This document shows, in pieces, positions 5,260 to 31,984 of a stretch of DNA of 47,835 bases. Position numbers and translations under genes: made by a program. Below the pieces are notes generated by a model, which was given only the letters and a program-made list of their open reading frames with translations, was not told the origin of the DNA and did no database searches. This DNA comes from a virus (taxonomy: Duplodnaviria; Caudoviricetes). The stretch spans positions 1 through 47,835 of the IMG/VR virus record IMGVR_UViG_3300049436_000142; one strand, 5' to 3'. Positions within the stretch are counted from its first letter, which is position 1. Every line of letters starts with the position of its first letter.

Positions 5260-5334
5260 TGGAAGGCAGAGTCCCAATCATCGTCCGTGGCGCACCAATG
5301 AGGGGATAGGCAGGGTCTGCCAGGAGCGAACCGC

Positions 5335-6597: not shown

Positions 6598-6636
6598 TGT
6601 GCGAGCGTCGGCCATCGCGTCACCGGCCGGCCGATC

Positions 6637-7777: not shown

Positions 7778-7879
7778 AGGGAGTCCTAATACTGCGTGCG
7801 GGCCGCCAACCCTCGACGCGGGCAGTAGAACACATGTTTGATGAGCTGTCAAATCGCCCGCGTTGACTCGCAAATAGCA

Positions 7880-7899
7880 AGTTGTATAGAATTGCAACT
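7880..7899. promoter_or_regulatory. AT-rich dyad AGTTG-N10-CAACT upstream of the ArsR pair (possible operator)
   Basis: agttgtatagaattgcaact lies within a locally AT-rich intergenic patch. Confidence 0.3.
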
Positions 7900-8664: not shown

Positions 8665-9377
8665 CGGGCACCTCTTGAACGACCCTTGGTAGGGGGCGGT
8701 GTGGTGGGCGGGGTGGGCGGGGACAAGTCGGATGCGGGACGGGCCGAGGCCGGCGCCGGACCAGAGCCGGTGGTCGGCCTTGGAGTGGCCTTGAGAGTGG
8801 ACGCGGCTTCAGGCGCGGCGCTGGTGGACGTGGGACGCTCGAGGGAGAGTGTCTCCAGCGAGACCACCGCGCGAAGCGGAAGGTCGCCACCGGTCTGGGC
8901 CTTGGCGGCGATGGCGCCGGCCTCGGGGGCCAGGTCGATGCTTGCGATAGTCCACCCGGGCTGGCGGGCCCGCCAGCGACCCAGAGCATCGCCGAGTTGC
9001 GGAAGGGTGATCGAGGCCAGCACGAGCGTGGCGCGGCGGGCGCGGACCTGCACCTGGCCGCCGCCGGGGCCGGCGAGGCTTCCCGTGTCGGGCTCGGCCG
9101 AGAGCGAGGCCATGGCCGAGGCCGGCAGGCCAGCGGCGGCAAGCGTCGCCGTGACTTCGGGGGCAAGCGCAGCGCTCTTGGGAAGGCGGGTCCACGTGGG
9201 CAGGTTGTCCTCGATCTCGCGGATCGTTGTTGCGGAGGCCGTGATCCGGGTGAGCCGCTGCACCTGGGCATGTTCGCGGGCGAGCGCCCGGCCCCACGCG
9301 ATGCCGCCGAAGCTCAACGCGGCGAGACTCACACCGAGGCTACACCACCAGAGGATTCGCGGGGGAGGCAGGTTCAC
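8661..9377 (-). CDS. Bitopic membrane protein, GspM/PilO-like by position and architecture
   Basis: GTG 9377 overlaps the upstream TGA and has a GGAGG RBS. N-terminal TM (ILWWCSLGVSLAALSFGGIAWG), coiled segment, alpha/beta region (ITLPQLGDALGRW...WTIASIDL), Pro/Thr tail. Confidence 0.55.
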   Translation of the reverse strand: MNLPPPRILWWCSLGVSLAALSFGGIAWGRALAREHAQVQRLTRITASATTIREIEDNLPTWTRLPKSAALAPEVTATLAAAGLPASAMASLSAEPDTGSLAGPGGGQVQVRARRATLVLASITLPQLGDALGRWRARQPGWTIASIDLAPEAGAIAAKAQTGGDLPLRAVVSLETLSLERPTSTSAAPEAASTLKATPRPTTGSGPAPASARPASDLSPPTPPTTPPPTKGRSRGAR

Positions 9378-10222
9378 TTGGCACCTCCGGCCGCGGGGCG
9401 CAGGTGGAGCGAGAGGCGGGTCACCGGACCGGCTGTAGCAATGCGGGGCTCGTCGAGCGTGAACCCGGCCGGGGTCACAAACGACGCAAGGAACGGGGCC
9501 GGATCCCCGTCGACCGTCACGCTCATGGAGATGCCGTCCGCGTTCACCGACAGATTCTGCGGCTTGGCCGCCAGCTGCGTGGGCCAGACTCTCAAGAGTT
9601 CCTGCAGCCCGGCCGCGGCGTCGGGCGCGGGCTTGGCCTTCCGAGTCGCCTCGGCGATGGCCCGCATGAGCTTGGTCTTCTCGGTGAGCGTGTCCTCCCT
9701 CTGTGGGGTGCCGGCATCCGTGAGGAGCGTGTCGGCGGCCTTGGCGGAGGCGAGGGCATCGGCGGTCGCTGCCTGGGCGCGGCGGAACAAGCCAACCGTG
9801 AGCAGAAGCGAGCACGCCAGGAGCGTGAGGGCCAGATGCGCGTGCCACGACCGGCGCGTTGCCCTGGCTGCGGGCGGCTCGCAGTCGCCAATGAGCAGGT
9901 TAAGACTGGCAAGATCAGCAGCGCAGGACAGCCCGTCGGGGACAGATGCGGGCCTGAGTTCGAGGATCGCCGGGTCAAGACCAGCGAGATCCGCGCGCGG
10001 GCAGGCGCAGATCAACACGCGGCCGCCTTCGACGGGGATGCCCACGGCCTGCAGGTCCTCGATCGGGAGGGGGAGTTCTTCGGCGAGTGCCAGGAGCAGG
10101 CCGGGCGGGAGCGGACCCGAGCCGCGCCACCCCATGGCGTCGATCTCGGCCCAGTAGAAACGCTGCGGCGGCCAAGTAGCGGCGATGGATGGGGATTCGC
10201 GGGAGTGGAGCGGGTCGCTCAT
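9374..10222 (-). CDS. GspL/PilN-like inner-membrane platform protein
   Basis: ATG 10222 (ATGA overlap, GGAGG RBS). Cytoplasmic part LAEELPLPIEDLQAV, then LNLL, a single TM (LALTLLACSLLLTVGLF) and a periplasmic part. Confidence 0.6.
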   Translation of the reverse strand: MSDPLHSRESPSIAATWPPQRFYWAEIDAMGWRGSGPLPPGLLLALAEELPLPIEDLQAVGIPVEGGRVLICACPRADLAGLDPAILELRPASVPDGLSCAADLASLNLLIGDCEPPAARATRRSWHAHLALTLLACSLLLTVGLFRRAQAATADALASAKAADTLLTDAGTPQREDTLTEKTKLMRAIAEATRKAKPAPDAAAGLQELLRVWPTQLAAKPQNLSVNADGISMSVTVDGDPAPFLASFVTPAGFTLDEPRIATAGPVTRLSLHLRPAAGGAK

Positions 10223-10725
10223 GGCGTCGCACCTCCGCTTCCTCCTGGCTGATCGGTCCGCAGCGAGAGGATGCGCTCTCCAGACTGATCGCGGATGTGC
10301 ACCCGCGCGTCGGTCACCTTCTCGATGCGGCGGCCCTGGAGGGTGTCCCCCTCGTGGACGGTGAAGAGCTTGTCCTGGTCGGGGTCGTAGAGCAGCGCGG
10401 CTGGGCGTTCGGCCCCGCCCGGGCCCGCCTGCTCCGTCACAATGGCGATGAGCTGGAGCTTCAGGGGCGGCGGTGGGGGGGGCGGCGCGGGTGGGGCGGG
10501 CGGCGGAGGGGGAACGACCCAGAGCGGCGCCTTGAACGCGACCAAGTCCAGTGGGGCGAGTGCCAGTGGCGTCGATGCAGCGGAGTTCCCCGCCGCTGTC
10601 GGCGTAACCCCGGCCCTCGTTCCCAGCGGCCACAGCGCCCAAACTAGGCACACGGCGATCGCACTCGCGCACCCGAGGCGAAGGGGCGTTAAGAGCATTC
10701 GGGAGGTATCGAGCCCTCGGGTCAT
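10219..10725 (-). CDS. GspC/PilP-like protein
   Basis: ATG 10725 overlaps the GspE stop. N-terminal TM, poly-Pro linker, then LKLQLIAIV...AALL...TVHEGDTLQGRRIEKV...V.I, the pattern of the GspC HR/PilP beta domain. Confidence 0.65.
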   Translation of the reverse strand: MTRGLDTSRMLLTPLRLGCASAIAVCLVWALWPLGTRAGVTPTAAGNSAASTPLALAPLDLVAFKAPLWVVPPPPPAPPAPPPPPPPLKLQLIAIVTEQAGPGGAERPAALLYDPDQDKLFTVHEGDTLQGRRIEKVTDARVHIRDQSGERILSLRTDQPGGSGGATP

Positions 10726-12449
10726 GTCTCGACCTCCTCGAGTGACTCGATGACCCTCGCCACCTCCGCGGCCGTGGTGAGACCCGCCTGCACCAGGGCC
10801 GCGCCGGCGTTTCGGAGGGAGACCATGCCCAGGCTCTCGGCCTTGGCCTTGATGTCCATGGCGTTGGCCCGCCGGATCACCATGTCGCGAAGTGGGGGGG
10901 ACAGCACCAGGAGCTCGAATACACCGGTGCGGCCCTTGAAGCCCGCGCCCAAACACCCCGTGCACCCCTCGCCCCGGCACTCGGGATGCACCTTCCGCAC
11001 CAGCCGCTGGGCCAGCACCGCGGCCAGGGACGAGGCGACCAGGAACGGCTCGACGTTCAGATCGATCAGCCGGACCACCGCCGCGGCTGCGTCGTTGGTG
11101 TGGAGTGTGGACAGAACGAGGTGGCCGGTGAGCGACGCCTGCACGGCGATGCGGGCGGTCTCCTCATCGCGGATCTCGCCGACCATGATTACGTCCGGAT
11201 CCTGGCGGAGGATGTGCCGAAGGCCGGTGGCGAACGTGACGTTCTTCTTGGGATCGACCTGGGTCTGGCTGATCGAGAGTCCTTGCCTGCCCGAGGCGCC
11301 GCCGTGCCCAATCCCCCCAATCGCTCCGCCGCCGGCAAGGTCGTACTCGACCGGGTCCTCGATGGTCATCATGTTGAGCTCACAGCCCCGCTGCGAGGTG
11401 GGAGCGACATGCCCGGCCGCCGTCTTCGAGGAAGACGCTTGCACCCCGCCCGAGCTGTTGGACTCGCTCAGCCACGAGAGCGTGGTGTAGAGCGTGGTCG
11501 TCTTGCCACTGCCGGTCGGGCCGGTGGAGAGCACGATGCCGGTGGTGCGGCTGACCTGGGTCAGGTACGTCGCCTCGAGGGCCGAGGGCATGCCCAGCGT
11601 GGAGAAGTTCAGGAGATACGCCGAGCGAACCGGATCCAGCAGCCGGAGCACGACCCGCTCGCCGTAGGTGGACGGGAGGGTGCTGACGCGCAGATCGATT
11701 CGGCGGGCCCGCCCATCGGAGCCCGCGCTCGAGCCTCCAATGCTCACCGCCGCCCGGCCATCCTGCGGGGCACGATGCTCGGCGACATCCAGCCGGGCCA
11801 TGATCTTGATGCGGCTGACAACCGCCGCTGCGAGGGAGCCGGGGAGTTCACGGACGGTGTGCAATGCCCCATCGAGCCGGTACCGCACCAGCGTCCGATC
11901 GCGAACGGGCTGGATGTGAACATCCGACGCGTCGCGATGCAGGGCCTCAAAGAGGATCAGGTCCACGAGGCGAATGCTGGGCGACTTGCCATCAAGGTTG
12001 AGCAGATCCTGCTCGACGTCCCGCACGGCCGCGGCGAGGTCGGCCTCCACGTTGGCCGAGGCCTCGATTATCTGCGTGGGGAGTTCAAGGCGGCTGGGAT
12101 TGGTCGGAGCGGCGGACGGTCCCTCCGCCGCGCGGGCGTACGCGGCGTCCACGGCCGAGGCCACCGACTCGGCCGGCGCGATGGTGGTGGCGATGCCGCG
12201 GCCGATGCGAACCCCGACGTTGAATATGGTCGCCGGTTTGCTGTGTTCCGCAACCAGAAGGTACTCGAGTCCGGCGCGGCATCCCTTGCTCAGGATGAGG
12301 TGGCGACGGGCGTAATCGTGGGGAATGAGTCGGAGAAACTCGGGCGAGGGCGCGCCTCCGGACGGATCGGCTCCTGACCCGGGTTCCGCATCCTCGATTG
12401 TCGGGTCATGGTTGACCGGGATCCTTGTCAACACGTCGGCAATGCTCAC
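10722..12449 (-). CDS. gspE: Type II secretion / type IV pilus assembly ATPase (GspE/PulE family)
   Basis: ASDVHIQP, RYRLDG, PQDGR, DLRVSTLP..GERVVLRLL, Walker A GPTGSGKTTT, TIEDPVEY, LRQDPDVIMVGEIRD, TGHLVLSTLHTND, AQRLVR. Confidence 0.95.
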   Translation of the reverse strand: MSIADVLTRIPVNHDPTIEDAEPGSGADPSGGAPSPEFLRLIPHDYARRHLILSKGCRAGLEYLLVAEHSKPATIFNVGVRIGRGIATTIAPAESVASAVDAAYARAAEGPSAAPTNPSRLELPTQIIEASANVEADLAAAVRDVEQDLLNLDGKSPSIRLVDLILFEALHRDASDVHIQPVRDRTLVRYRLDGALHTVRELPGSLAAAVVSRIKIMARLDVAEHRAPQDGRAAVSIGGSSAGSDGRARRIDLRVSTLPSTYGERVVLRLLDPVRSAYLLNFSTLGMPSALEATYLTQVSRTTGIVLSTGPTGSGKTTTLYTTLSWLSESNSSGGVQASSSKTAAGHVAPTSQRGCELNMMTIEDPVEYDLAGGGAIGGIGHGGASGRQGLSISQTQVDPKKNVTFATGLRHILRQDPDVIMVGEIRDEETARIAVQASLTGHLVLSTLHTNDAAAAVVRLIDLNVEPFLVASSLAAVLAQRLVRKVHPECRGEGCTGCLGAGFKGRTGVFELLVLSPPLRDMVIRRANAMDIKAKAESLGMVSLRNAGAALVQAGLTTAAEVARVIESLEEVET

Positions 12450-14827
12450 GGGCGGCCTCCGATCAGCCTCGGTTCAACAGCTGGCCATCCGTCGTCGATC
12501 CCTGCACTAGTGGATTGCCCATCTGAGAGGTGCTTCAGATCCTCGAAGTTGGTGGATCGCAGGATGCTCGCGCGAACGAATACGTAAAAACGAGTCCGGG
12601 AATGCGACACGCCACGGCTCTTGAACAGTTCGCCAATGAGCGGAATGCTGCCAAGGCCGGGGACTTGGCTGGCATCGTTGCCTTCGCTGGTGTTCTCAAG
12701 ACCTCCCACGACGACCGTGTATCCGTCGGGAATCGTTGCCACGCTCTGCACGGTGTTCTGCTGCCGGGGAGGAGGAAGGTTCGCGCTGGAGGCGACCCCG
12801 GTGAACGAGCTCAGTGCCACGCTGTAGGTCAAGGTTAGATGGTCCCCTTGGGCGATCTGTGGCTTGACTGAGATGGTTGTGCCGGCGTCCTGTGTGCCGC
12901 CGAAGGCGGTCGTTGCAACTGTCGTTGACGCGTTGGTCGTGGCGAAGGGCTGCTGCAAGACCGAGTTGAACGTCGCCTGCTGGTTGTTGGACACGAGCAG
13001 CTTTGGGCTCGAGAGGGCTCTGCCTTTGTTCAACGTCTCCAGGGCCTTGACCACCACGCTAAAGTCCCCGGGATTGAGCACCACGCCCGTGAAGCCAGTA
13101 GCGTCGCCCACCGCGCGTGTCGCCGCCGCCCCGCTCCCAGCTGCAGTGGAAAGGCCGAACAGGCTTGCCAGTCGGATGAACGTGTCCCCCGAGACCTGCA
13201 CCCGCTCGAGCTCGACGCCAAGGCTGAGCGTTTGGCTATCTGTGAGGCTCACCAGGAAGGCCTCGAGCATGACCTGGGACTGGCGAACGTCAAGCGTCGG
13301 TAGCAGTCGCTCGAGTTGGGAGAGCAGCCGCGGATCGCCCACGGCGATGAGTGTGCCGGTCGCCTCGTCGCATGTGAGCGTCAGCGCCGGCAGGCCCAGT
13401 CGGGCGCGAGCGCCGGGTAGCGAAGGCGGCGATCGAGTCGTTCCCAATGCTGTACCCTGCGGGGCCGTGGCATCGGCTGCGGTTGGCGTTCCCGGACTTG
13501 GGGATCCGGGCAGCAAGGATCCGCCGGGGGCAAAGGGGCGCGTTGTGGTTTGCGAGCCCAACGCACTGGAGGGGTTTGGTGGGTCGCCCTGGCCAGGACC
13601 AGGGGGGGCGTCCCCACCGTTGGCATCGAGTATTCCGGCGCGAAGCAACTCTTCCACGAGCTGCTGGATCTCGCGCACTGGACGGTTGTGAACGCTGAAC
13701 ATCTTCAGGGGACGACGTGCCTCGGCGGGAACGCGTGAGAGTCCGGCGAGCAGCTCCGAGATCTGGTCGTGCTGGGCCGGTAAGGCTGTAACGATGAGTG
13801 TGCCCGTCAGCTCATCGAGCACGAGCTTCCAACGATCGTCGGGGATGCCGGAGGGTGAACCCGGCGAACTCTGCGGGAACCCGGCGGGCGATGCGCCCGT
13901 TGTCCGTACCGTCTGCTCGATGAGGTTCGCGACTTCCTTGAGCCCGAACGCCCCCGTGGTATAGGTCCGCCGCTCGACGGGTTCGCGCTGATCGGCATCA
14001 GCGATGATCGACATCCATTGATCCAGCAGCGCGGGCGGGGCAATGAGCGTTACCGAGGTGCCGTTGCCCGAGGGAACGACGTCGCCCCGCAGTTCTCGTC
14101 CACCCACCGCCTTCCGCCGATCGGCCAGCTGCTTGGTCAGGGTCGCCAACCGCGTCGGATCGATGTTGCGGGCGGGAACATGTCTGACGACCGCTCCGCC
14201 CTCCGTCCCGTCGAGTTGCTCGACCAGCGCGAGTGCCGCGTTGAGCGAGGGCGTTAGGTCGGCGATCATGACCAGCCCCGCCTGTTCGGAGTCGGAGGCC
14301 ACCCCCCCTGGCTTGGAGAGCACGAGCTGTACCGCCGCGAGGATGTCCTTGCTGGCGGCTCTGCGAAGCGGGATCAGCACGCGTCGAAACCCCGCCTGAA
14401 CGCCCTTGTCGTCCCGCACATCCTCCACCCGTTCGACACGGGCCGCCTGCGCCGCGTTAACAACCTTGACAACCGCTAGGGTGGAATCATCGCCAGATCG
14501 AATTGTGGTCAGACCCTGATCGGCCAGGAGGCGATTGGTGAGTTGCCAGAGCTCGGCATCCGCGATGGGACGGTCTTGGCGGAGCGTCACCTTGGACTTC
14601 AGCGTGGCCTCGTCGTAGGTAACTCGAAGCCCGAGTTGCTCGGCCGAGAGATCCACCAATCGCGCTAGTTCAACCGACGAGGGAAGGGTTGTGTGGCCGC
14701 CCGGCGACGGAAGCTGGGCTGTATTCGCGGGCTGAGCGAGGACGGGGGACAAAGCGAACCACGCGAGTAGCCCCGCCGAGCGGATGCAGGTTCCTCTCCA
14801 CGCACGATCCGTTCGGTGGCCATCCAT
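12446..14827 (-). CDS. gspD: Secretin (GspD/PulD family)
   Basis: Signal peptide ending VLA-QP, N-domain repeats, secretin core LDVRQSQVMLEA...ALSSPKLLVSNNQQA...VKPQI...VVVGGL...VPGLGSIPLIGELF. Start 14827 preferred; the ORF is open to 14905. Confidence 0.93.
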   Translation of the reverse strand: MDGHRTDRAWRGTCIRSAGLLAWFALSPVLAQPANTAQLPSPGGHTTLPSSVELARLVDLSAEQLGLRVTYDEATLKSKVTLRQDRPIADAELWQLTNRLLADQGLTTIRSGDDSTLAVVKVVNAAQAARVERVEDVRDDKGVQAGFRRVLIPLRRAASKDILAAVQLVLSKPGGVASDSEQAGLVMIADLTPSLNAALALVEQLDGTEGGAVVRHVPARNIDPTRLATLTKQLADRRKAVGGRELRGDVVPSGNGTSVTLIAPPALLDQWMSIIADADQREPVERRTYTTGAFGLKEVANLIEQTVRTTGASPAGFPQSSPGSPSGIPDDRWKLVLDELTGTLIVTALPAQHDQISELLAGLSRVPAEARRPLKMFSVHNRPVREIQQLVEELLRAGILDANGGDAPPGPGQGDPPNPSSALGSQTTTRPFAPGGSLLPGSPSPGTPTAADATAPQGTALGTTRSPPSLPGARARLGLPALTLTCDEATGTLIAVGDPRLLSQLERLLPTLDVRQSQVMLEAFLVSLTDSQTLSLGVELERVQVSGDTFIRLASLFGLSTAAGSGAAATRAVGDATGFTGVVLNPGDFSVVVKALETLNKGRALSSPKLLVSNNQQATFNSVLQQPFATTNASTTVATTAFGGTQDAGTTISVKPQIAQGDHLTLTYSVALSSFTGVASSANLPPPRQQNTVQSVATIPDGYTVVVGGLENTSEGNDASQVPGLGSIPLIGELFKSRGVSHSRTRFYVFVRASILRSTNFEDLKHLSDGQSTSAGIDDGWPAVEPRLIGGRP

Positions 14828-14874
14828 GCCTGCAATCCTCGGACGTGATCTGAGCGAGCCGTACGTCGCGGTGT

Positions 14875-15642
14875 TCAAGGGGCTTGCCGAAGCATCTGAG
14901 TCCATAGGGCCTCGAGCTCACCTCGGTGGGCGGCGATTCGTGCGGCGGCAGACGCGGTGGCGAGTTCGGCGTTGGCGGCCTGGAGGACCGAATCGGTGTC
15001 GGCGGGCGAGGCCATTCCGGAGCGGGGCACGACCGGGTTGCGTGGATCAACCCTGGGCGTCCCGGCGTGCTGGAGGGCGACCCATTGTCTCGGCGTCCGG
15101 TCGCTCACGAGATACTGCGTGGGCACGCTCCATGGGCTGTTGCGGCGGATGGTCTGCAGCGTGAGCACCTGCTCGGCTGTGAGCCCCTCGGTCGCGGTCT
15201 GGAAGGCGTTCTCCAGGAGGTTCTGTCGGCTCGACGCCGAGGCCTGCCGGGCGTTCTGCAGAGTCGCCAACGTATTCTGCGCGTCCGCGGGTGGGTGCCC
15301 GGCAGCGATCGCCCGCTGGATGTCCGAGATGTTCCGGTCACTTTGCGCGATGGCATCGTCCTGCGCCATCAGCGCCCGCCCCTCGTTCATCCATACCTCC
15401 TTGGTGGCCGCGAGGCACGCCTGGAGCTGCTCGATGCTCACGCCGGCGGCCGCGAGCGATTCCGGCACGAGGCCGATCCGGGCGGCGAGCGCGGCGGCCC
15501 CGGCCGGCGGGGGCGTCGGAGGCTGTGAGCGCTTGGGCAGCCGGGCCGAGAACGACCACACCGCCATCGTGCCCAGGAACGTGACGCATATGAACACGAT
15601 GCCCGCGGTGAGGATCGAGCCACGCTTGGTACGAGCAGCCAT
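14875..15642 (-). CDS. Membrane-anchored helical periplasmic protein, first gene of the secretin operon
   Basis: ATG 15642 with AAGGAG RBS. N-terminal TM (ILTAGIVFICVTFLGTMAVWSF), coiled-coil-like body, GLTAEQ (LTxxQ-like) motif. Confidence 0.7.
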   Translation of the reverse strand: MAARTKRGSILTAGIVFICVTFLGTMAVWSFSARLPKRSQPPTPPPAGAAALAARIGLVPESLAAAGVSIEQLQACLAATKEVWMNEGRALMAQDDAIAQSDRNISDIQRAIAAGHPPADAQNTLATLQNARQASASSRQNLLENAFQTATEGLTAEQVLTLQTIRRNSPWSVPTQYLVSDRTPRQWVALQHAGTPRVDPRNPVVPRSGMASPADTDSVLQAANAELATASAAARIAAHRGELEALWTQMLRQAP

Positions 15643-15719
15643 ACGAGTCTCCTTGAGGCGGGAGCGACCATCGCTCGGACAGGCACAACATACCCCACCG
15701 TGGCCCGCGGGCGCGACGT

Positions 15720-15742
15720 TTGACGATTGCGGCAAGTGTCAA
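15720..15742. promoter_or_regulatory. Near-perfect 23-bp dyad in the divergent secretin-operon/Rhs intergenic region
   Basis: TTGAC-ga-TTGC-g-GCAA-gt-GTCAA, roughly midway between the starts at 15642 and 15822. Confidence 0.45.
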
Positions 15743-15821
15743 GCGTTGGTTTCGGTCGGCAACGCGATGGAGACTTGCCCACTTGGCGTTGCGTTCATCG
15801 CACGTCACCAGGAGCACGCCC

Positions 15822-18800
15822 ATGCGGTCTTTCACCCCATCAATCGGCTCGATGATCTCCTCGACCGCTCGCGGCCTCGGCTGGCGTGCAATCCTTGGAT
15901 CGCTGCTGCTCGTGTTCGCGGCATCGGTATCGAAGGGGTCCACCGTGACCTCCCCGCTGATGAACTGCCTTGCCAGCGACAGCAACGTCATCGGCGCGTG
16001 TTCGAGCGGCAACTGGAAAGACTTCATCGAGGCACTCGAGAAGTGCCTCGACCGTCGACTGACGCCGGAAGAACTCATAGGACTGATCGATTACTTCGAG
16101 GACCACTGCCTGCCGCCGCCAGTTCCCGCACCACCGCTTTGTCTTGAGTTGCGGGACTACCTCGACGGACGGACCGACCTGAGCTGCGACCAGAAAAATC
16201 AGGTGCTTAAGCAGCGCCGGTGCCCGTACCGGTTCCAGTGCGCCATCAAGGATCCTTCCCCGCCCACGCCACCGCCGTGCGGAGATTGCCCGGACAAGGG
16301 AATCGAGCCGCCGCCGTACCCGAGTCCCCAACCGCCCGTGTCGTGGAAGCTCGCGGTTTCCGAGAACCCATTCGGACGTCCGCACAGCATGCCTCCCAAG
16401 ATGGCGGGTGTCGACCTGAGCAACGGCTCGATCGATCGGACCGTTGTCGACCTGTCGTTGCCGTCGGCGGGGTTTCCGTGGACGATCGCGCGGAGCTACG
16501 GTGCCCGGCAACTCGATGAGACCGGCACACATCGGGACGTCAACAACTACCAGGGCTGGAACTGGATGCAGACGTCCGAGCCGCAGCTGTACTACCACTC
16601 GGTGGCCGAGCTCACCGGCGAGATCGAACGGGTGGACCTGCTGCTCGACGGCGAGACCCAGCTCTCTTTCGTCGAGGTCCAACCCCAGAGCGGCGTGTTC
16701 AAGGCCCACGGCAACGCGGCCGGAGTGGTATACCACGATCTTTCTGCGGGCACATGGATCTACTACGACCAGGCCGGCAACACCATGACCTTCATCGACA
16801 AGGGGGTGAACGGCTCGGGTGTCGGCGTCAACCGCTTCTGGAAGATGGAAGACCCCGCGGGGAACGTGGCGTACGTCGGGAGCTTGTCGAGCACCTCGGC
16901 CGCGGAGTCCGCGGGTTACGACGGCACGACCAACCACATCAAGCTCGCGTTTGACACTAATGGGCGGCAGTACGATTACGCTTATTCGGGCAGCACCATC
17001 GGCGGGGCGTATCGCCTCATGTCCGTCATCGTGACCCAGAGCACCGTCGAGATTGCGCGAGTCGAGTACGCCTACTACGGGGACGGCACGAACGACCCGA
17101 AGGATACCTCTACCGGCGCCGTGACCGGACTGGACGGGGATCTCAAGCTTGTCAGCGTGCGCATTCCGACCAGCGTGTCGGGCGACAGCATCACGCACAA
17201 GACGCACTACCGCTACTACGTCGACGATTCGACCACGACCACCGACAAGAAGGGATACAGGCACACGCTCAAGAGCATCGTCGGACCCGAGGGTGTGCGG
17301 CGGTACGAGATCGCCACGGCTCACTCGATCCTCGACCCGACCTATGCCTACGACAGCACGATCACCACCTATACATCCGAGTACATGGAATACCACCAGC
17401 CGTCGGCGGCAGCCTTCAACCCCGAGCGGTACGTCAAGGTCAAGTACAACAACGGGGAGTGCGGGTGCGGCGGGGGATCGCTCAATGGCAGCTACCAGTT
17501 CGACTACTCGTGGATGACGGCGATTGCCGAGTGGGGTGGCTCCCCCGCCTACTACGGCAGTCCGTCATTCCGGGCGGAGGTCACTCAGCCCGATGGTGTG
17601 CGTGTCAATCAATACACGGATGTGCAGGGACTCTCTACCGGCACGATCACCGTGGCCACGGACATCGCAGGTACGTATTACTGGATGACCTCTCTGGAGC
17701 GCGACGCCGACGACACGATCCTCGGTCATTCTGGAACGGGTTACGTGAACGCCGCGTACTCACCGGGGGCCGTGGATGCTTCCACGGGATTCAGCCTCGC
17801 CAACGGAACGATGACAACGCTCAGCACCGGCTTGGTGCAGCACTACGTGTACTACACAGACCCCACGCTCGCGGGATTCACACGCCACACCAAAATCAGC
17901 GACGGCAACGGTTCGGCCATCCAGACGCTCATGTCCACGACCGAGTATGTTGCCCAGACACGCGCGTGGACATACTCGGCCTCGCTCGGGACCGTGAACG
18001 TGTCAATTCGCCGGCCCTTCGTGCAGTATTCCTGGGCCTACGACGACGCCCAGACCACGGAGGCCGACTCATCCATTCCCACGTTTCCTACCGGCGCCCA
18101 TCGCACCCAGATGGACTACACGTTCTGGTCCACGACGGCGTCGGATGTGGAGTACATCGTTCCCCAGAGCATCACGACCACCCTGCCACGGGTCTCCGTT
18201 CACACCAATGGACGGGGCGATGGCGGATCGGACCCGGTGGTGTTCTCGTCGGCGTACTTCCGGCTCGATGGCACGGGCGCGTTCACGCGCGAGCTTGCCT
18301 ACGACGATCGGGCCGATGCCGTCTACACGTACACGCTCTACAGCGGCGGCCTGCCCGTGATGCGCAAGGTCGACCTCGACTCCGGCGACGGCGACATCGA
18401 CAGCGCGGACGACCCGCTGGGCGTGTTCGGGATCGCGGATATGGCCTCCTCGTCCTCGGGCCTACTGACCCAGAAGACAACCTTCACGTACGACCCGCAA
18501 GGCCGCTTGTCCAGCACCGATCTCTACGCCGAACTCTCCGGCGGCAGTGGAGATCGCGCCACACTGACGTACTACACCAAGCTCGCCGACGGTCGAGCGG
18601 CGGTTCTCTCGATCCCGAAGTACCTGGGTGGTGGCACGCCGACCTACTACGGGCCTGCGTCCTACAGCGTCGTGAACCAGGCGGGCCGCGGTGAGTTCTC
18701 GGGCACGATCGGCTTCGGTTCCTCGACGCCCTTCACGACCACCACTGCCATCAACACATGGATCAACACCGGCGCCACCGCTCCGATCGCGGCCGTCAGC

Positions 18801-21800
18801 GGATCGGGCTTGTCGTTAAGCCAATGCAGCGAGACCCTGTACGACAACACCGGCACCCGGGCGTTGTCGCGGCGATCGTACACGGACCTCTCAACGCCCA
18901 CCTACCTCCAAACGACGTTCGGGTACGATAACATGGGGCGACTGGTGCGAACGGTCGATCCGACGGGCACCATCAACAGGACAGGGCTCGATGGTCTTGG
19001 TCGTCCGGTGAACCACTCGGTGGGCACCGACGACACAGGCGAGATTGCCAGCACGCTCTCGGGCACTTCGAACATGTTCGTCACCGACAAGACCGCCTAT
19101 GACTCCGCGTCGATCGGCTCAATAATGCAGGGCGGAAACAGCTACGTGACGACCCGCGTGCTGTATCCGACCACGAGCTCCGGGGACGATCGAACGACCG
19201 AGTATCTCAACGACTTCCGCGGTCGCGCCGTGGTGGTCAAGAGCCCGGTATCGCCGCACACCCTCACCAAGTTCGACAATCGGCGGGCTGTGGCCGCGGG
19301 GTCGTACAGCTCATACTCCGGGCTCACCGCGCTCACGGACCCGACGACCACGTCCACCAACCGACTCGGACTGAGCGAGTCGTTCTTCGATGCCCGAGGG
19401 AAGGGATGGCGCCAGGTCCAGTGGGAGATCGATCAGTCCACCGGTGCCAAGACCGCCAGCGGCAGCCGGTTCTTGGAGTCTCGTATTGTGTTTGGACCCG
19501 GGGGAGAAATCTTGCAGTCCCGCAGTTCCGATGCGCACCGGTACAACTACGACCGCCTGCGCCGCCGCACCCATGACTGGAGCCTCGCGTACACCAGCGC
19601 GTGGCACACCAGCACGGGCGGGGGCGACACGGACCACGAGGTGTACGACGACCTATTCGACGCCACGACCAATACCACGCTGCTCTCCAGCAACACGTCC
19701 ACGGGCGACATTGTGCTCGAAGAGGGACGGACAGTGTACGACCCGAACCGGAACCTCGTGCTGGTGACGGCCATGGTCAGTCGCCATCACGACGACGAGA
19801 CCACGCACTATACGAGCACCACGACCACACGCGGTCCGCTCGACGGCACGAGCGGGACGAGCCCGGTCTTCGACGTCTCGGCCATCAACGGCCGTTTGCA
19901 CGGGATCACGGCGATGTACTACGATGAGCTGGACCGGGCCACGCTCACCGCGTCCTACGGCGACAACCGCAACACGACCGGGCTGATGGACTTCAGCTAC
20001 AACACCACCGCCCCGACCGCGAGCGCGACGGCCACTAGCACCACCGCGGCCGTGCTCACGAGCTGGCGTGACCACGACAAGTTCGGACGCACGCTTCGGG
20101 TCCACGACCCCAAGGACCTGAAGACGGAGTACATCTTTGACGATGCGGGGCGCATGACCAAGACCCGCACCAATGCCGTCGCCGGGAGCCCCGGAGAAGA
20201 CACTATGGACACGTACTTCACCTACGGCGCAACTGGCCTGCGCACGGAGATGTGGGTCGACAAGAACCTCAACGGGACGTACTCGGCCGCGTCGCCGGAC
20301 TTCGACCAGAAGACCGTGTATGGCTATGCGAACAACTCCAGCCCGGCCTCGGGTGATCCCGGCTCGGTCATAACGGTCGAGAACCTGCTCACGAGCGTGA
20401 CCTATCCGGACGGTGGCGTCGTGAAGTACGGGTACAACGCCCTGGGCCAGCAGAAGCAGATGAAGGACCAGGCCGGAAACTTCATCGACACGGCGTTCGA
20501 CGTCGGGGGGCGCGAGACGAGCCGGACCATGACCACCGTGGTGAGTCCCTTCGACTCGACGCTCCGCCGGATCAACACGACCTACGGCGATGCCCGGGGC
20601 ATAGTGACGCAGATCGCCCAGTATTCCGATACCAGCGCTTCCACCCTCCTCGACTCGGTCGGGTTCCACTACGACAACGCGGGGAATCTGGATCAGCGGA
20701 CCCAGACTGTGGACTCCCACGTCTGGACCACGACGCTCACGTATGATCTGCACATGCCCGATGGGTCGTCCAACCTCCGCACCAACTACGCGCTGGGCGA
20801 GCTGGGGTATCCCGACGGCACCCTCGTGGACTACGCGTACTCGAACTCGGGCTCCTGGGACAAAGCCGCCGAGCGAGTGAGCGCCGTGTCGGTCGATCGC
20901 GCCGACGACGGCGTCAGCGGGTTCACGCTGCTGGCAGGGTACTGGTACAACGGCCAGGCTGAACTGATCGAGAATCGCGAGTACTTCAGCACCGCCACGG
21001 GGATCACCGAGCGCTCGCTTGCCCAGTCGCTTGACGACGTCAACCCGTCGAACTACCGGCAGTACAACAACATCGACGCCTTCGATCGCGTCACCAACTC
21101 GTGGCTGCGCCGCGTGACCGTGACGACCACCCCGGCGACGTTCTACGCCACGTTCAACAAGACCAGCATGCTCACCAGCGCCCCTGCGCCCGGGTACGAC
21201 TTCGACTCCAACATTATCGGGCTCAAGGACGACCGGTGGGCGCTGTACTCCGCGGACTTCACCGTGGATGGTATGAACCGCCTCACGCAGCGGGCCAAGA
21301 CGACCGGCTCGGGCACCGGCCTTGTCGAGAGTTTTTCGATGGATCGGCTCGGGAACTTCATCGGCGCCTGCGGCGACACGCCCGCCGTGCCGGGAATCCT
21401 GACGGACTTCAACGGGGATGGGAACTACACGACCGGGGCGCTCAACACCAAGGACATGTTCGAGTGCCGGACGAGCAACACCTCCAACCAGATCACCCAG
21501 CGGTCGGGCACGACCCTTCCCGCCGCGCTGTCGCCAAGCTACGACATCGTCGGCAATCTGGTCGACGACGACACGACCATGAGCTCGACCACCGGCTACA
21601 CCTACACGTGGGACGCCATGGGTCGCCTCACAAGCGTGACGAGCAAGGCGACCAGCGCTCTCGTGGCCGAGTACCGCTACAGCGCCGATAACCACCGCAT
21701 AGCCTGGCGCTACGGCACGAGCAACCCCTGGTACTTCCCCGTGTACGACCACCGGTGGCGCATGATCGCCGTGTACAAGGCGGAGGTTGAGGCGGATCCG

Positions 21801-23243
21801 ACGCTGCAAGAGCGCTTCTACTACCACAATGCGGGGTTTGCCGGCGGCGGCGGCTCGATGTACATTGACAGCGTCATTGCTCGCGATGACGCTCGAACGA
21901 ACGTCGCACCTCCCGAGGAAGATCCTGTTTACCAGCTCATTCGCTGGATGTTCTACGCCCAGAACTGGCGCGGCGACGTTGTGGGCATGCTCAAATCCGA
22001 CGGCTCGCCCTACGAGCACGTCCGGTACACCTCCTACGGGAGGCCCATCGGCATGATCGCCAGCGAATGGGATGGGGACTTCGCCACGGGAACCAGTACC
22101 GACACGTCGACCTTTATCAGCGCTTGGTTCGCCGCCAACCCCTACTCGGACTTCAACATGGACGGGCAGCTGGCCACGCAGGACATCTTTGATTTCATCA
22201 ATGATGCGTTCGGACACTCATCAGGCGGATACGACGGGCTGGCGTCAGGATCTGCAAATCGCAAGGGGTATGCGGGCTACGAACACGACGTTGCAATTGC
22301 TTCGTTGCAACTGGCGAGAAGAAGATACTATCGAGCATCGTTCGCATCATGGCTGCGACGTGATCCTGCCGGAGCCGGCGTTGATGCAAATGCTTATACA
22401 TACGTTGATGATGATCCAATTGATGCAGTTGATCCATCCGGACTTATTTCCGAACAAGCGGGATCCTCCGGCTCATGCACTAGCTGCGGAAGCGTTGCCG
22501 CAATCGCTGGAGCTGTCAACGGTGCCCCGCCAGTGGCGATGATAGCGCCGCCCACAATGGGATTCCCGTGCGCGGACTACGATTTAATCCCTACGATACT
22601 TAAGCTCATGCAACAAAAGGGATGCAGAACGCCGACTGTATCGACGGCGCCACTTGGCGATCCGGTGTGCGCCGGGGGCGCTACGGCATATTACGATTGC
22701 ACCAACCATGCGATTGTTGTGTGTAAAGGCCCTCTGCCAAAAAAGGATCCTGGCATACAACTCTGGCCCGCCTCCACTGATCCGAGTGTTCAGCAAACAC
22801 CGCAACTCCCATGCATTGCCGTTCAGCACGAGCTTATTCATGCGCTAGATGTTTGCCAAGGAATCACCAGATGTGATATGGACCCCAATGGCGGAGGGCC
22901 GACCACTTGTCGTTCGCGAATTTGTACAGAGGCTAGAGCGTATTACTTTGGAAATACCAAGGCAAATGGTCTCAACAGTTGCTGCAAATCGGGCATGCTT
23001 GGCGGTTTCTTAGATTATAGTTGCATGCGATCATCGATTCGAAGATCGATTGGCGGGATGGGGTGCAATCCGAATGACGCGATGCTAGATGCAATAATCA
23101 AAGATTGTGTACCGACCACTGCATGCAAAGGAAAGGTCGTTCCCGGGGATCTTGCACCCGCCCGCACTGCGCCACCGTTTAAGTACCGTCCCCCGTTCGG
23201 CCCATCAGATCAGTTGCCGGGAACAGAACCATGGCGAATGTAG
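15822..23243 (+). CDS. Rhs/YD-repeat polymorphic toxin with Sec-type signal peptide, dockerin-like insert and HEXXH (M76/ATP23-like) C-terminal domain
   Basis: ATG 15822 with AGGAG RBS; leader WRAILGSLLLVFAASVSKG; DUF6531-like GVDLSNG...DLSLPSAGFPWTIARSY; many YD repeats (YDPQGRL, YDNMGRL, YDELDR, WDAMGRL); core end RYY...WLRRDP...NAYTYVDDDPIDAVDPSGL (DPSGL at 22431-22445); tip HELIH at 22827. Confidence 0.93.
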   Translation: MRSFTPSIGSMISSTARGLGWRAILGSLLLVFAASVSKGSTVTSPLMNCLASDSNVIGACSSGNWKDFIEALEKCLDRRLTPEELIGLIDYFEDHCLPPPVPAPPLCLELRDYLDGRTDLSCDQKNQVLKQRRCPYRFQCAIKDPSPPTPPPCGDCPDKGIEPPPYPSPQPPVSWKLAVSENPFGRPHSMPPKMAGVDLSNGSIDRTVVDLSLPSAGFPWTIARSYGARQLDETGTHRDVNNYQGWNWMQTSEPQLYYHSVAELTGEIERVDLLLDGETQLSFVEVQPQSGVFKAHGNAAGVVYHDLSAGTWIYYDQAGNTMTFIDKGVNGSGVGVNRFWKMEDPAGNVAYVGSLSSTSAAESAGYDGTTNHIKLAFDTNGRQYDYAYSGSTIGGAYRLMSVIVTQSTVEIARVEYAYYGDGTNDPKDTSTGAVTGLDGDLKLVSVRIPTSVSGDSITHKTHYRYYVDDSTTTTDKKGYRHTLKSIVGPEGVRRYEIATAHSILDPTYAYDSTITTYTSEYMEYHQPSAAAFNPERYVKVKYNNGECGCGGGSLNGSYQFDYSWMTAIAEWGGSPAYYGSPSFRAEVTQPDGVRVNQYTDVQGLSTGTITVATDIAGTYYWMTSLERDADDTILGHSGTGYVNAAYSPGAVDASTGFSLANGTMTTLSTGLVQHYVYYTDPTLAGFTRHTKISDGNGSAIQTLMSTTEYVAQTRAWTYSASLGTVNVSIRRPFVQYSWAYDDAQTTEADSSIPTFPTGAHRTQMDYTFWSTTASDVEYIVPQSITTTLPRVSVHTNGRGDGGSDPVVFSSAYFRLDGTGAFTRELAYDDRADAVYTYTLYSGGLPVMRKVDLDSGDGDIDSADDPLGVFGIADMASSSSGLLTQKTTFTYDPQGRLSSTDLYAELSGGSGDRATLTYYTKLADGRAAVLSIPKYLGGGTPTYYGPASYSVVNQAGRGEFSGTIGFGSSTPFTTTTAINTWINTGATAPIAAVSGSGLSLSQCSETLYDNTGTRALSRRSYTDLSTPTYLQTTFGYDNMGRLVRTVDPTGTINRTGLDGLGRPVNHSVGTDDTGEIASTLSGTSNMFVTDKTAYDSASIGSIMQGGNSYVTTRVLYPTTSSGDDRTTEYLNDFRGRAVVVKSPVSPHTLTKFDNRRAVAAGSYSSYSGLTALTDPTTTSTNRLGLSESFFDARGKGWRQVQWEIDQSTGAKTASGSRFLESRIVFGPGGEILQSRSSDAHRYNYDRLRRRTHDWSLAYTSAWHTSTGGGDTDHEVYDDLFDATTNTTLLSSNTSTGDIVLEEGRTVYDPNRNLVLVTAMVSRHHDDETTHYTSTTTTRGPLDGTSGTSPVFDVSAINGRLHGITAMYYDELDRATLTASYGDNRNTTGLMDFSYNTTAPTASATATSTTAAVLTSWRDHDKFGRTLRVHDPKDLKTEYIFDDAGRMTKTRTNAVAGSPGEDTMDTYFTYGATGLRTEMWVDKNLNGTYSAASPDFDQKTVYGYANNSSPASGDPGSVITVENLLTSVTYPDGGVVKYGYNALGQQKQMKDQAGNFIDTAFDVGGRETSRTMTTVVSPFDSTLRRINTTYGDARGIVTQIAQYSDTSASTLLDSVGFHYDNAGNLDQRTQTVDSHVWTTTLTYDLHMPDGSSNLRTNYALGELGYPDGTLVDYAYSNSGSWDKAAERVSAVSVDRADDGVSGFTLLAGYWYNGQAELIENREYFSTATGITERSLAQSLDDVNPSNYRQYNNIDAFDRVTNSWLRRVTVTTTPATFYATFNKTSMLTSAPAPGYDFDSNIIGLKDDRWALYSADFTVDGMNRLTQRAKTTGSGTGLVESFSMDRLGNFIGACGDTPAVPGILTDFNGDGNYTTGALNTKDMFECRTSNTSNQITQRSGTTLPAALSPSYDIVGNLVDDDTTMSSTTGYTYTWDAMGRLTSVTSKATSALVAEYRYSADNHRIAWRYGTSNPWYFPVYDHRWRMIAVYKAEVEADPTLQERFYYHNAGFAGGGGSMYIDSVIARDDARTNVAPPEEDPVYQLIRWMFYAQNWRGDVVGMLKSDGSPYEHVRYTSYGRPIGMIASEWDGDFATGTSTDTSTFISAWFAANPYSDFNMDGQLATQDIFDFINDAFGHSSGGYDGLASGSANRKGYAGYEHDVAIASLQLARRRYYRASFASWLRRDPAGAGVDANAYTYVDDDPIDAVDPSGLISEQAGSSGSCTSCGSVAAIAGAVNGAPPVAMIAPPTMGFPCADYDLIPTILKLMQQKGCRTPTVSTAPLGDPVCAGGATAYYDCTNHAIVVCKGPLPKKDPGIQLWPASTDPSVQQTPQLPCIAVQHELIHALDVCQGITRCDMDPNGGGPTTCRSRICTEARAYYFGNTKANGLNSCCKSGMLGGFLDYSCMRSSIRRSIGGMGCNPNDAMLDAIIKDCVPTTACKGKVVPGDLAPARTAPPFKYRPPFGPSDQLPGTEPWRM

Positions 23244-23770
23244 TACATCGAATTGGTTCCGGCGCCACAGTGGTCCGAACATGCGCGGGCGTGGGCTTGC
23301 TTATGAGTTTGGCGGCGATAACCCTAATGCTGGTAGTTGCCATGCAAGCAACGCTGAAACAGGGCGCGGGGGATGAAAAATCTTCGATTCAAAATCGAGA
23401 CGGGTCTCTATTTTATGAAGAAGTGCATGAATTTGGATGGCCGTTAGAGTGCATGTATTTCCGACTAACGAGGCGTGTGGGAGGTTTTGTGCCATCTGAC
23501 GGTTGGGAGATGAATGTGCAGGATGGGCTGGTTGTATCGGAATACGACTACCATCGATTGGGAGTCGTAATGCCGCTTGGAATATATTGGGGCCCAATGA
23601 CATACGATTTCATTATCTGGAGCATGCTGTGGGGCGTGGTCGGCCTGTTTGCGTTCCGCGGTTGGGTACGTTTGCGTAAAGGGACCGGTGCTAAATGTCG
23701 TTGGTGCCGATATCGTCTAGCCGGTTTGCCAACCGCACGCTGTCCAGAGTGCGGACAGATGAACCCCTAG
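23231..23770 (+). CDS. Putative immunity protein: two-TM membrane protein with C-terminal Zn ribbon
   Basis: Overlaps the Rhs stop by 13 nt and shares the AT-richer composition of the toxin tip. TM1, FGWP motif, TM2, then CRWCRY.L.GL...CPECG. Confidence 0.65.
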   Translation: MANVVHRIGSGATVVRTCAGVGLLMSLAAITLMLVVAMQATLKQGAGDEKSSIQNRDGSLFYEEVHEFGWPLECMYFRLTRRVGGFVPSDGWEMNVQDGLVVSEYDYHRLGVVMPLGIYWGPMTYDFIIWSMLWGVVGLFAFRGWVRLRKGTGAKCRWCRYRLAGLPTARCPECGQMNP

Positions 23771-23899
23771 TGTAGGACTATATTTGCTACTGAGCGCGGC
23801 ACAAATCCGCGACTCACGTGGTGACACCTGGGACGACCAGCGGGATGGCCCTGAAGAATGATCGCAGGAGCTTTTGATCGCTGGCAATGTCGGCCAGCG

Positions 23900-24413
23900 C
23901 GACGCCTGTTTCCAGCCGCAGGTCGTCGCCTCGTCCACGACAATCAGCGTGGCGCGGCGTCGCCTCGTTTTTTTTCGATGGCCGGGAACTCGACCTTCAG
24001 GAACCGCTTGATCGCCACCTCGTCGCGCTCGCGGGCCCGCCCCATGGGCCTCTGCACCGAGAGAGACCCAGCCCGCGCACGAAGCGGTTGAGATGATCCT
24101 CGTGGCACTTCACCCCGAACTGGCGCTCGATGTACTCGGCGATCATCGGCAGCGTCCAGAGCTCGCTCTCAAAGCCGCTGGCCGCGGGCGACTTGATGAT
24201 CAACCGCCTGACGGTCTTCCAGTGCTCGCGTTCGAGCTTGAGCGGCCGCCCGCTCTTGGGCACGCTCTTGGGCGCCTTGGTGCCGCCCAGCCTCGCCAGC
24301 TTGCCCCACATTTGCACGCAGTTGCGCGCCACCCCGAGGTCGGTCGCGACCACCACCGCGGACTCACCGGCCCGAAGCCGACGCACCACCTCCATCCGCC
24401 GCTCATCCCACAA
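23900..24413 (-). pseudogene. IS630-family transposase remnant
   Basis: HTH region (GRPLKL, WTLPMIAEYIERQFGV). After a frameshift it reads QRPMGRARERDEVAIKRF...EKK, then an A8 slippery run (23968-23975), then TLIVVDE. The rest of the DDE domain is not recognisable. Confidence 0.8.
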
Positions 24414-31280: not shown

Positions 31281-31679
31281 GACGCGACAGGTCAGTTGTC
31301 GCACGCGACGGATGACCTGTCGCGTCCGCCGGGTCAGTTGGAGAACGCTCCGGGCGGGCTGGCGACCTCGCCGGGCGGGCCGGAACACGCGCCGGGTCGC
31401 CTGTCGCGTTGTCCGGGTCATCCGTCGCGTTCTCCGGGCGAGTCGGAGAACGCTCCGACTCATCCGGAGCGTCTTCCGAGTGAGCCGGAGGGAAGCGGCG
31501 CAGCGCGCCGCCCCCCCGCGGCGGCGCGCCGGGAGGGATTGGAAGCGCCCCGGAGGGGAATGGCGGCGCGCCGGAGGCCCGGGGCCGCGCCCCGGAGCCC
31601 AGCGGTGGCGCGCCGGGAGGGAGTGGCCGGCGCACGGACGGGATTGGATGGCCCTCGGAGGCCCGGCGCAGCGCGCCGG
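31281..31679 (+). repeat. Degenerate 21-bp tandem array (about 19 units in two sub-arrays)
   Basis: Units such as cacgcgccgggtcgcctgtcg / cgttgtccgggtcatccgtcg (31281-31490) and aggggaatggcggcgcgccgg / agcccagcggtggcgcgccgg (31491-31679) stay in continuous 21-bp register. Confidence 0.75.
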
Positions 31680-31710
31680 GGCGGCGGGGTTGTCGCACTG
31701 GCCCGCGCGG

Positions 31711-31984
31711 TCTTCGCCCCAGCGGTGCGACGGGCTGTAGCCACGGGTGGAGCGGAGGGCCGAAGGCCCGAGCGCAACCCGTGGACAGGGGCGGGGCATG
31801 CGCCCTCCGCCCCGGCGGGGCGGCGGAGTTTCGCGGGCTGTGCCAGCTCGCCTGTTGATGCGCCCTTCCTCTGCCCCTCCGGGGCAGGCGAGAACATGAA
31901 CGACGCTCTCCACGGGTTGCGTTCGCTCGAAGACTCGCTCACTCCACCCGTGGCTACACCCCTTGACCCCTCCGGGGTCGAAGA
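31711..31984. repeat. Long nested inverted repeat (REP/REPIN- or MITE-like element)
   Basis: Perfect 17-bp IR tgtagccacgggtggag (31736-31752) with 31942-31958; perfect 13-bp IR 31773-31785 with 31909-31921; four gcccc-N3-ggggc-type mini-hairpins; tcttcg/cgaaga at the ends. Confidence 0.8.

Follow-up and report, generated by a model that had tools for sequence, protein, structure and literature searches.

A divergent M76/Atp23-like domain as the putative exchangeable toxin tip of a bacterial Rhs protein

The C-terminal tip of an Rhs (YD-repeat) protein encoded in the 47,835-nucleotide stretch of DNA analyzed here (the window) is, judging from its sequence, very probably homologous to the M76/Atp23 peptidases. 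Atp23 (M76, PF09768) is a protease of the mitochondrial intermembrane space and an ATP synthase assembly factor. With fair confidence, we favor the reading that the tip is a divergent M76/Atp23 relative carried as an exchangeable Rhs tip, and that it is likely an exported antibacterial protease active outside the cytoplasm.

The Rhs gene occupies positions 15720..23243 of the plus strand as its longest frame (2,507 codons), with Met35 (15822) or Met45 (15852) more likely to be the real start than the beginning of the frame. Residues 57-71 (15888..15932, +) form a signal-peptide-like hydrophobic stretch preceded by basic residues, the sole such segment within the whole protein by hydrophobicity, and this N-terminus suggests that the protein is exported. 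RHS repeats (PF05593, 33.7 bits) are recognized in the frame, and the Rhs-associated core domain (TIGR03696; 22233..22445, +) matches at 46 bits against a cut-off of 32.5, its last residue falling exactly at 2242. The protein is of planctomycete type, and its core ends in DPSGL (22431-22445, +), a predicted self-cleavage site that we take to be the point of cleavage from the behavior of DPxG in the Rhs family. The tip that follows (22446..23243, +) comprises 265 residues, 18 of them cysteines, up to the stop at 23243; the G+C content is ~0.55 across 22001-24000, the region of the tip, versus 0.62-0.65 in the Rhs core. The M76/Atp23-like zincin domain spans 22566..23129 (+; residues 1-188 of the modelled piece), with an intact HExxH motif, HELIH, predicted to be zinc-binding and catalytic, at 22827-22841 (+), and the Glu of the CxE in CTEARA, likely the third zinc ligand, at 22929-22931 (+).

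The initial annotation had likened the tip to ATP23 through a series of motifs, all of which are present in 22446-23243, in frame and in the right order, and the likeness itself was borne out by the best Pfam hit, by ESM Atlas features, by bridging bacterial tips and by a profile-profile match. Among 24,736 Pfam families, PF09768 was the sole family reported for the 265-residue tip (E 0.056); M76 is therefore its best family, at a score below the gathering cut-off of 25.2 (13.7 bits for the full tip and 14.9 bits trimmed), so that we class the tip as M76-like and not as an M76 member. No other zincin family scored better, since M91 gave 11.4 bits against a cut-off of 25 (E 0.42) and no Tox-MPTase family was reported in the Pfam scan at E ≤ 10. 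A profile of 112 stand-alone ATP23-like proteins scored the window tip at 25.3 bits, a value reached by 0 of 2,000 shuffles in which HELIH was kept (maximum, 14.9), and three profiles from which the window tip was left out, made of 11, 8, and 5 tips, scored it at 50.3, 40.8, and 31.6 bits, compared with 19.7, 17.3, and 14.8 bits for the best of 2,000 such shuffles. When aligned with canonical ATP23 by hhalign, profile to profile, the tip matched with a probability of 98.7 and a pairwise E of 2e-16 over 126 columns. In the ESM Atlas, M76 made up the three top-ranked clusters and 18 of 30 matches, with scores of 0.90-0.91 and a feature overlap of 151-157 of 256, below the 170 typical for same-family matches; with the M76 clusters removed, no score exceeded 0.85 (M91, 0.82; DUF6782, 0.81). 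Direct searches with the tip found no close relatives, some returning only its own protein, and searches of PDB sequences gave chance matches only and no ATP23 structure.

Stronger M76 matches were identified in related bacterial tips. M76 domains above the cut-off, at up to 111 bits, form the C-terminus of Rhs proteins in 5 of 401 genomes from the host's class and 5 of 151 Verrucomicrobiota genomes, and were found in none of 685 genomes sampled across five other groups, Alphaproteobacteria (0 of 201) among them. The PF09768 scores of homologous Rhs tips were 111.2 (L081), 60.7 (L082), 39.6 (L085), 37.4 (L083), and 30.2 bits (L092), and those of further Rhs tips were 58.2 (L107), 52.4 (L112), 41.7 (L109), 37.5 (L110), and 35.7 bits (L111). 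Two genomes, G121 and G297, were left out of one survey with 11 matching genomes for want of an HExxH frame, and 9 of the 12 matches of another were left out as not being HExxH Rhs tips. Profiles of the tips above the cut-off match the window tip at 32-50 bits, compared with up to 20 for controls. The 111-bit tip, from genome G093, lies on a 130-kb contig in frame with its Rhs core, and on account of this shared reading frame we rejected eukaryotic contamination as the source of the match. A search with this tip gave 724 matches at E ≤ 1e-3; among the 150 listed, 112 are stand-alone proteins, 29 have an upstream Rhs core, and 9 are short and ambiguous. The best tip retrieved named ATP23 proteins at E ~1e-17, with bird, yeast, sedge, and Dictyostelium ATP23 among the named matches.

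The active-site residues of the tip agree with those of the stand-alone set, in which CTEARA falls on columns of C (100%), E (98%), R (100%), and A (98%). The Glu of CxE is unchanged in all 22 aligned tips (invariant positions E89, H92, and E122), and a relative tip, L136, has lost the first His (DELSH). M76 is left unassigned in PMC7804941. The correspondence of HELIH and the downstream Glu proposed at the outset was thus upheld, whereas the cysteine scaffold proposed with it is weaker evidence than claimed. Of 12 columns that the ATP23-like set conserves, the window tip has Cys at 11 in a joint alignment and at 10 when re-aligned, but 5 of 60 shuffles with HELIH kept, and 1 of 23 unrelated tips, also came to 10 or more, and the cysteine content of 6.8% compares with a control-tip median of 7.5%. 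Cysteine richness is generic in this lineage, and we dropped both it and the column counts as evidence.

A generic cysteine-rich zincin of the M91, DUF6782, SprT or Tox-MPTase type, likened to M76 through HExxH and many cysteines, would fit the score below the M76 cut-off, the weak M91 score, the cysteine columns matched by shuffles, and the long branch of the window tip (1.64), which has no starred placement in the tree. We nevertheless regard it as very improbable, as the tip outscores all 2,000 same-composition shuffles in each of the four profile tests, hhalign matches it to canonical ATP23 at 98.7%, the Atlas scores fall once M76 is removed, and M76 ranks first among Pfam families for 11 of the first 12 tips scanned. 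A structural model from a 12-tip alignment (pLDDT 77.5, pTM 0.78) predicts a low-confidence insert of ~20 residues ahead of the active-site helix of the window tip. Foldseek returned zincins as the top rows for this model, none of them significant, and a wide fold search ranked winged-helix domains above zincins, with a best Z of 6.4 and no significant match; fold searches with a single-sequence model (pLDDT 50) were uninformative.

The tip stands in a polymorphic setting. This Rhs core type is present in 34 of 121 genomes, and the 31 complete tips read from 30 loci with related cores are mostly unrelated. M76-like tips are common in the arsenal of this lineage (5 of the 31), where the same core type also carries PLA2G12-like (3), AMOP, Ntox16-like, and lipase-like tips, PLA2G12 and AMOP scoring 55.8 and 49.9 bits in sister tips, both above cut-off. 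The M76 tips of G072, G086, and G975 are carried on tandem short cassettes; no orphan cassette lies behind the Rhs gene within the window. YD repeats with a core ending in DPxG, varied tips on one core, and orphan cassettes in relatives are all features of Rhs polymorphic toxins, and we consider it probable that the tip serves as a toxin.

Overlapping the Rhs stop by 13 nucleotides is a 179-residue gene (23231..23770, +) for a candidate immunity protein, which contains an N-terminal membrane segment (18-36), a loop, a second hydrophobic stretch discerned by eye, and a C-terminal CxxC...CxxC, and which matched no known immunity family in a profile scan. Hydrophobicity exceeds the threshold in 17 of the 21 genes behind M76-like tips, the other 4 having signal- or lipoprotein-like starts by eye. 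Among the genes that follow other tips, 16 of 23 are hydrophobic as well, and membrane-type neighbors are a general trait of this lineage. The neighbor genes of M76 tips are of unrelated types, and the type found in the window also follows unrelated tips (L133, L150). Among full-length carriers, L115 and L116 have signal-like N-terminal stretches by eye, and L114 and L117 are without a clear signal peptide. Judging from sequence features, action of the tip outside the cytoplasm is likely. A fixed link to the neighboring GspD/GspE genes was not supported: neither gene occurs in any of the 12 regions surrounding other M76-like tips, and L001, which has the two genes, shows no large Rhs frame within 6.9 kb upstream. 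A phage role for the Rhs protein was rejected despite the viral label of the record, since secretion genes adjoin it and it lies between two mobile-element-like blocks. No tRNA or terminal repeat was found, and viral contigs gave no match for the Rhs core or the L081 tip.

We propose that the Rhs protein would be exported by Sec, that the disulfides of the tip would form in the periplasm, and that the core would cut itself at DPSGL and free the tip. The freed tip would bind zinc via two His and one Glu and could cut proteins of the envelope, or membrane proteins that face the periplasm, in a neighbor cell, while the protein encoded downstream would be anchored in the inner membrane and protect the producer. 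The closest working analogy for such a tip and its cognate gene is VgrG2b/PA0261 of Pseudomonas, in which, according to the accessible text of PMC6899460, the C-terminal zinc metallopeptidase is a periplasmic toxin blocked by PA0261 immunity. We claim no homology between the two, and VgrG2b is delivered by the T6SS on VgrG, a protein not found in any of 5 carrier genomes tested (incomplete assemblies; the E. coli control was positive).

It is unlikely that the Rhs protein is instead a surface or secreted scaffold whose tip is a non-toxic exoenzyme or a recognition module for feeding, adhesion, or kin recognition, with some copies of the tip perhaps non-catalytic given the additional chaperone role of Atp23. 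The chaperone function is described as separate from proteolysis in the part of PMC12315970 consulted, L136 lacks the first His, and direct evidence of toxicity is stated to be lacking for Akkermansia Rhs proteins (PMC11923206, excerpt), all of which would suit a scaffold; against it, polymorphic toxin loci likewise show orphan cassettes, turnover of tips, and a downstream partner gene, and E89, H92, and E122 are kept in every aligned tip. Quite unlikely, too, is a tip aimed at eukaryotes such as grazing protists, algae, or fungi and not at rival bacteria. PLA2G12 and AMOP in the sister tips are families known mostly from secreted eukaryotic proteins, and VgrG2b strikes both bacterial and eukaryotic cells (PMC6899460, same text), but there is no evident entry route into eukaryotic cells, and each tip is followed by an overlapping, variable gene, the usual sign of self-protection, which an effector directed only at eukaryotes would not need.

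Like Atp23, the window tip has HELIH followed by D-x-C and CxExRA, a length of ~170-190 residues, and, at a level that some shuffles also reach, most of the cysteine positions, and it would also fold in an oxidizing compartment, as shown for yeast Atp23, a ten-cysteine Mia40 substrate (PMC4951193, in the part available). Unlike Atp23, it is bacterial, fused to Rhs, and exchangeable; the LSGDC...E..RG segment found in canonical ATP23 is missing from it, and there is no sign that it takes part in assembling ATP synthase. The zincin toxin tips of Zhang et al. 2012 (Tox-MPTase1-5, HopH1/NleD-like M91, ALF-MPTase; PMC3482391) resemble it in having HExxH at an Rhs C-terminus and a downstream candidate immunity gene, but the Pfam results for Tox-MPTase and M91 place it in a different family, and M76, ATP23, KUB3, and Ku70 are not named in the first 300,000 of the 357,715 characters of that main text. 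An antibacterial Rhs M91 tip is on record (PMC13556075, partial text).

According to a 2014 table based on MEROPS, M76 occurs in 21 eukaryotic phyla and in 0 bacterial and 0 archaeal phyla (PMC3890501, as excerpted). No paper linking M76 to bacteria or Rhs toxins was found in the open-access literature, and InterPro or the current MEROPS may list bacterial matches automatically; an 'Atp23' match in PMC8242063 proved to be a citation mark, not the gene. In our tree, the canonical ATP23 clade (33 rows, support 99/95) contains no Rhs tip. The initial annotation had considered the tip possibly informative on the origin of the family; the tree places the Rhs tips outside canonical ATP23 and, being unrooted, gives no direction of origin. 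We tentatively raise the possibility, less likely than not, that Atp23 descends from an exported, disulfide-bonded bacterial Rhs tip of the Planctomycetota/Verrucomicrobiota type, not from Alphaproteobacteria, captured before LECA. The captured tip would then have become an intermembrane-space processing protease and chaperone, and a second group of M76 proteins in eukaryotes (Mucoromycota, Heterolobosea) would represent either an old paralogue or another capture. The greater divergence of the bacterial tips, the nesting of none within canonical ATP23, and their absence from the alphaproteobacterial sample speak for such an origin; as toxin tips change rapidly and the tree is unrooted, M76 may instead have passed from eukaryotes to bacteria in an ancient transfer.

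The arsenal of polymorphic toxins would gain a peptidase family from these tips, and Atp23, the substrates of which are given as unknown in mammals and plants (PMC8847149, in part), would gain bacterial relatives outside the Alphaproteobacteria sampled, making its origin testable. The tips would also offer small soluble homologues of a family for which we found no structure in the PDB.

The window, a complete 47,835-base record labelled viral, encodes an Rhs protein of 2,507 codons (15720-23243, + strand) that contains RHS repeats as well as an Rhs core domain ending at DPSGL; a single hydrophobic segment lies near its N-terminal start. The motifs listed after DPSGL in the initial annotation were all found within the 265-residue tip (22446-23243, +). 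G+C content is 0.62-0.65 in the Rhs core versus approximately 0.55 across the tip and the next gene, a drop as expected for an exchanged cassette. Within the core, at about 22066-22220 (+), is an insert with DxDxDG/DFNxDG loops, present also in relatives (e.g., the sampled loci L086, L095, and L097), which we take to resemble a dockerin or EF-hand module.

PF09768 (peptidase M76, the mitochondrial ATP23 family) was the sole Pfam family reported for the window tip (E 0.056), and the trimmed domain gave an additional, weaker match to M91 (E 0.42). In ESM Atlas features, M76 clusters ranked first (0.90-0.91) and made up 18 of 30 matches, with a feature overlap below the same-family norm. No close relative of the tip was found in the collections searched, and these direct matches point weakly to M76 identity.

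Among 401 genomes of the host class, 11 matched PF09768 at E ≤ 0.01, five of them above the cut-off; nine of the 11 matches, including all five above the cut-off, were C-terminal tips behind an Rhs core. When the window tip was used as the query against 301 genomes, 12 matches were obtained, three of which were HExxH Rhs tips, one shared with the Pfam matches. Profiles built from 11, 8, and 5 tips with the window sequence excluded (the last from the above-cut-off tips alone) scored the window tip at 50.3, 40.8, and 31.6 bits, respectively, versus maxima of 19.7, 17.3, and 14.8 bits among 2,000 shuffles that kept HELIH. The best tip, from the sampled genome G093, reached 111 bits on PF09768 and had 724 matches among 1.84 billion proteins; the 150 listed were classed by motif and by eye as 112 stand-alone, 29 Rhs-linked, and 9 ambiguous. 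Thirty of these 150 were looked up. Among the names are ATP23 of bird, yeast, sedge, and Dictyostelium, fungal peptidase M76, proteins of Willaertia and Percolomonas, and a pair of Rhs proteins, one of them from a Sumerlaeia bacterium; many looked-up rows are nameless, so "stand-alone" is not proven to mean eukaryotic row by row. A profile of the 112 stand-alone rows scored the window tip at 25.3 bits, a score that none of 2,000 controls reached, and hhalign matched seven window-near tips to 22 canonical ATP23 sequences with a probability of 98.7. The window tip is tied to M76 by its relatives' profiles, and its own Pfam score, at 13.7 bits, is under the cut-off of 25.2. The bacterial M76 and M76-like Rhs tips form a real family beyond one gene, of which the window copy is a divergent example. 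The M76-like tip at L136:874-1497 (-) has DELSH in place of HExxH and is possibly inactive or changed in its metal site. P0085, among the G093-tip matches, is an M76 protein of 199 aa that lacks an Rhs core and whose start resembles a signal peptide; it is possibly a bacterial M76 secreted in free form.

The cysteine scaffold, proposed as further evidence for M76, is weak alone because Cys-rich tips are common on related cores (median 7.5% Cys) and because the window tip's number of conserved Cys columns is equalled by 5 of 60 shuffles. An AlphaFold2 model from a 12-tip alignment (pLDDT 77.5, pTM 0.78) is ordered as helix, three strands, HExxH helix, and CxE helix. A Foldseek search placed zincins (ArdC, selecase, IrrE-like) on top, with none at E ≤ 0.001; a wide fold search returned full-length zincins at Z 4.3-5.6, with winged-helix domains ranking above them, and no ATP23 structure was found in the PDB. 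The modeled structure therefore fits a zincin without deciding the family.

In a FastTree phylogeny of all 172 domains, from a match set biased to one query (the G093 tip), 111 of the 112 stand-alone rows fell on one side (92), joined there by 6 Rhs tips on long branches and by 3 ambiguous rows. IQ-TREE analysis of 82 rows, after removal of 71 stand-alone and 19 bacterial-type rows as very long-branched or near-duplicate, recovered a canonical ATP23 clade of 33 rows (99/95) with no Rhs tip within it; the Rhs tips were thus not acquired recently from the canonical ATP23 proteins sampled. The backbone lacks resolution, with bootstrap still unsettled, and a constraint uniting all 41 stand-alone rows with P0070, a row added after tree inspection, was not rejected (p-AU 0.40). 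Six other stand-alone rows, including Mucoromycota and Heterolobosea, group separately (84/85). This second stand-alone M76 group (P0040, P0072, P0135, P0034, P0038, and P0055, including Halteromyces/Absidia, Willaertia, and Percolomonas) falls outside canonical ATP23 and, unlike it, has no E..RG segment; its layout is nearer to that of the bacterial tips.

Above-cut-off M76 was found in 5 of 151 Verrucomicrobiota (six loci, each behind an Rhs core) and in 1 of 111 Planctomycetota-wide genomes (three loci behind Rhs cores). Five further groups, named from the titles of their centre records, gave no PF09768 match at E ≤ 0.001: Alphaproteobacteria (201 genomes), Acidobacteriota (151), Gammaproteobacteria (131), Myxococcota (101), and Bacteroidota (101). 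All of these samples are small, exclusively bacterial, and made up of incomplete genomes, and the PF09768 model misses divergent tips. Because three Planctomycetota records (one Phycisphaeraceae) share 64-67% identity with the window GspE, against ≤47% for the remaining 77 of 80 loci, and the class sample centred on the best GspE match contains a Sedimentisphaerales genome, we infer a host in the Phycisphaerae.

Among 121 genomes from the order, 34 carry the window core type, frequently in multiple copies. Thirty fetched core loci yielded 31 complete tips, comprising five that are M76-like by the bacterial profile, three PLA2G12-like, one AMOP, one Ntox16-like, one lipase-like, and a remainder without assignment. 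The tip at L148:2191-2817 (+) contains AMOP, a domain of animal extracellular proteins, at 49.9 bits (Pfam cut-off 25). Those at L149:2461-3081, L137:2407-3144, and L147:2263-2781 (all +) resemble group XII secretory phospholipase A2, one at 55.8 bits, above the cut-off of 34, and two more weakly. The gene downstream of the window Rhs (23231-23770, +) overlaps the Rhs stop; its product is a membrane protein that shows a zinc-ribbon pattern at the C-terminus, of a type that also occurs behind unrelated tips. Behind M76-like tips, almost every gene encodes a membrane or signal-bearing protein (17 of 21 by threshold), a trait of the whole system since 16 of 23 genes behind other tips do likewise. 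Directly after the window's candidate immunity gene, the one that overlaps the Rhs stop, is a helix-turn-helix fragment (23997-24413, -), presumably an IS630-type transposase remnant.

Divergent from the Rhs gene, 8068-15735 (-) encodes a TPR protein, two proteins without known function, a GspE-type ATPase, a GspD-type secretin, and a 286-aa membrane-anchored protein also without known function. GspD/GspE adjacency to M76-like tips is not conserved, and a search of five carrier genomes detected no VgrG. Two mobile-element-like blocks probably explain the viral label of the record: one at 25591-47700 (+), with DUF2924, a large serine recombinase, type I restriction-modification with RhuM, an HTH and IrrE-like pair, AAA_24, DUF669, a helicase, and Prim-Pol/DUF3987, and a second at 1673-7897, with an N6/N4 methylase. 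Between rhuM and hsdS, 31282-31977 is G+C-rich and contains degenerate repeats with a 21-nt period, along with nested inverted repeats whose arms are 36 and 25 nt long.

Judged from sequence, the window Rhs is most likely an exported polymorphic toxin. It would be exported by Sec, its tip would fold oxidatively after export, and self-cleavage at DPSGL, presumed from known Rhs-protein behaviour, would release a zinc protease able to cleave the envelope proteins of neighbouring cells, with the membrane-anchored downstream protein protecting the producer. The tip might instead be an anti-eukaryote effector or a non-toxic exoenzyme, or its M76 likeness might be due to chance. For the exported toxin, VgrG2b (PMC6899460) and an Rhs M91 tip (PMC13556075) offer two precedents. 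Inhibitory Akkermansia vesicles are reported to be enriched in Rhs proteins, without direct proof (PMC11923206).

A 2014 MEROPS-based table confines M76 to eukaryotes (PMC3890501), and the text examined of a 2012 polymorphic-toxin survey does not name it (PMC3482391). In the open literature searched, M76 came up in plant and fungal inventories only, and we found nothing on bacterial M76 or on Atp23 linked to polymorphic toxins or Rhs. Rhs systems with M76, AMOP, and PLA2G12 tips may have a number of disulfide-rich domains in common with eukaryotes.
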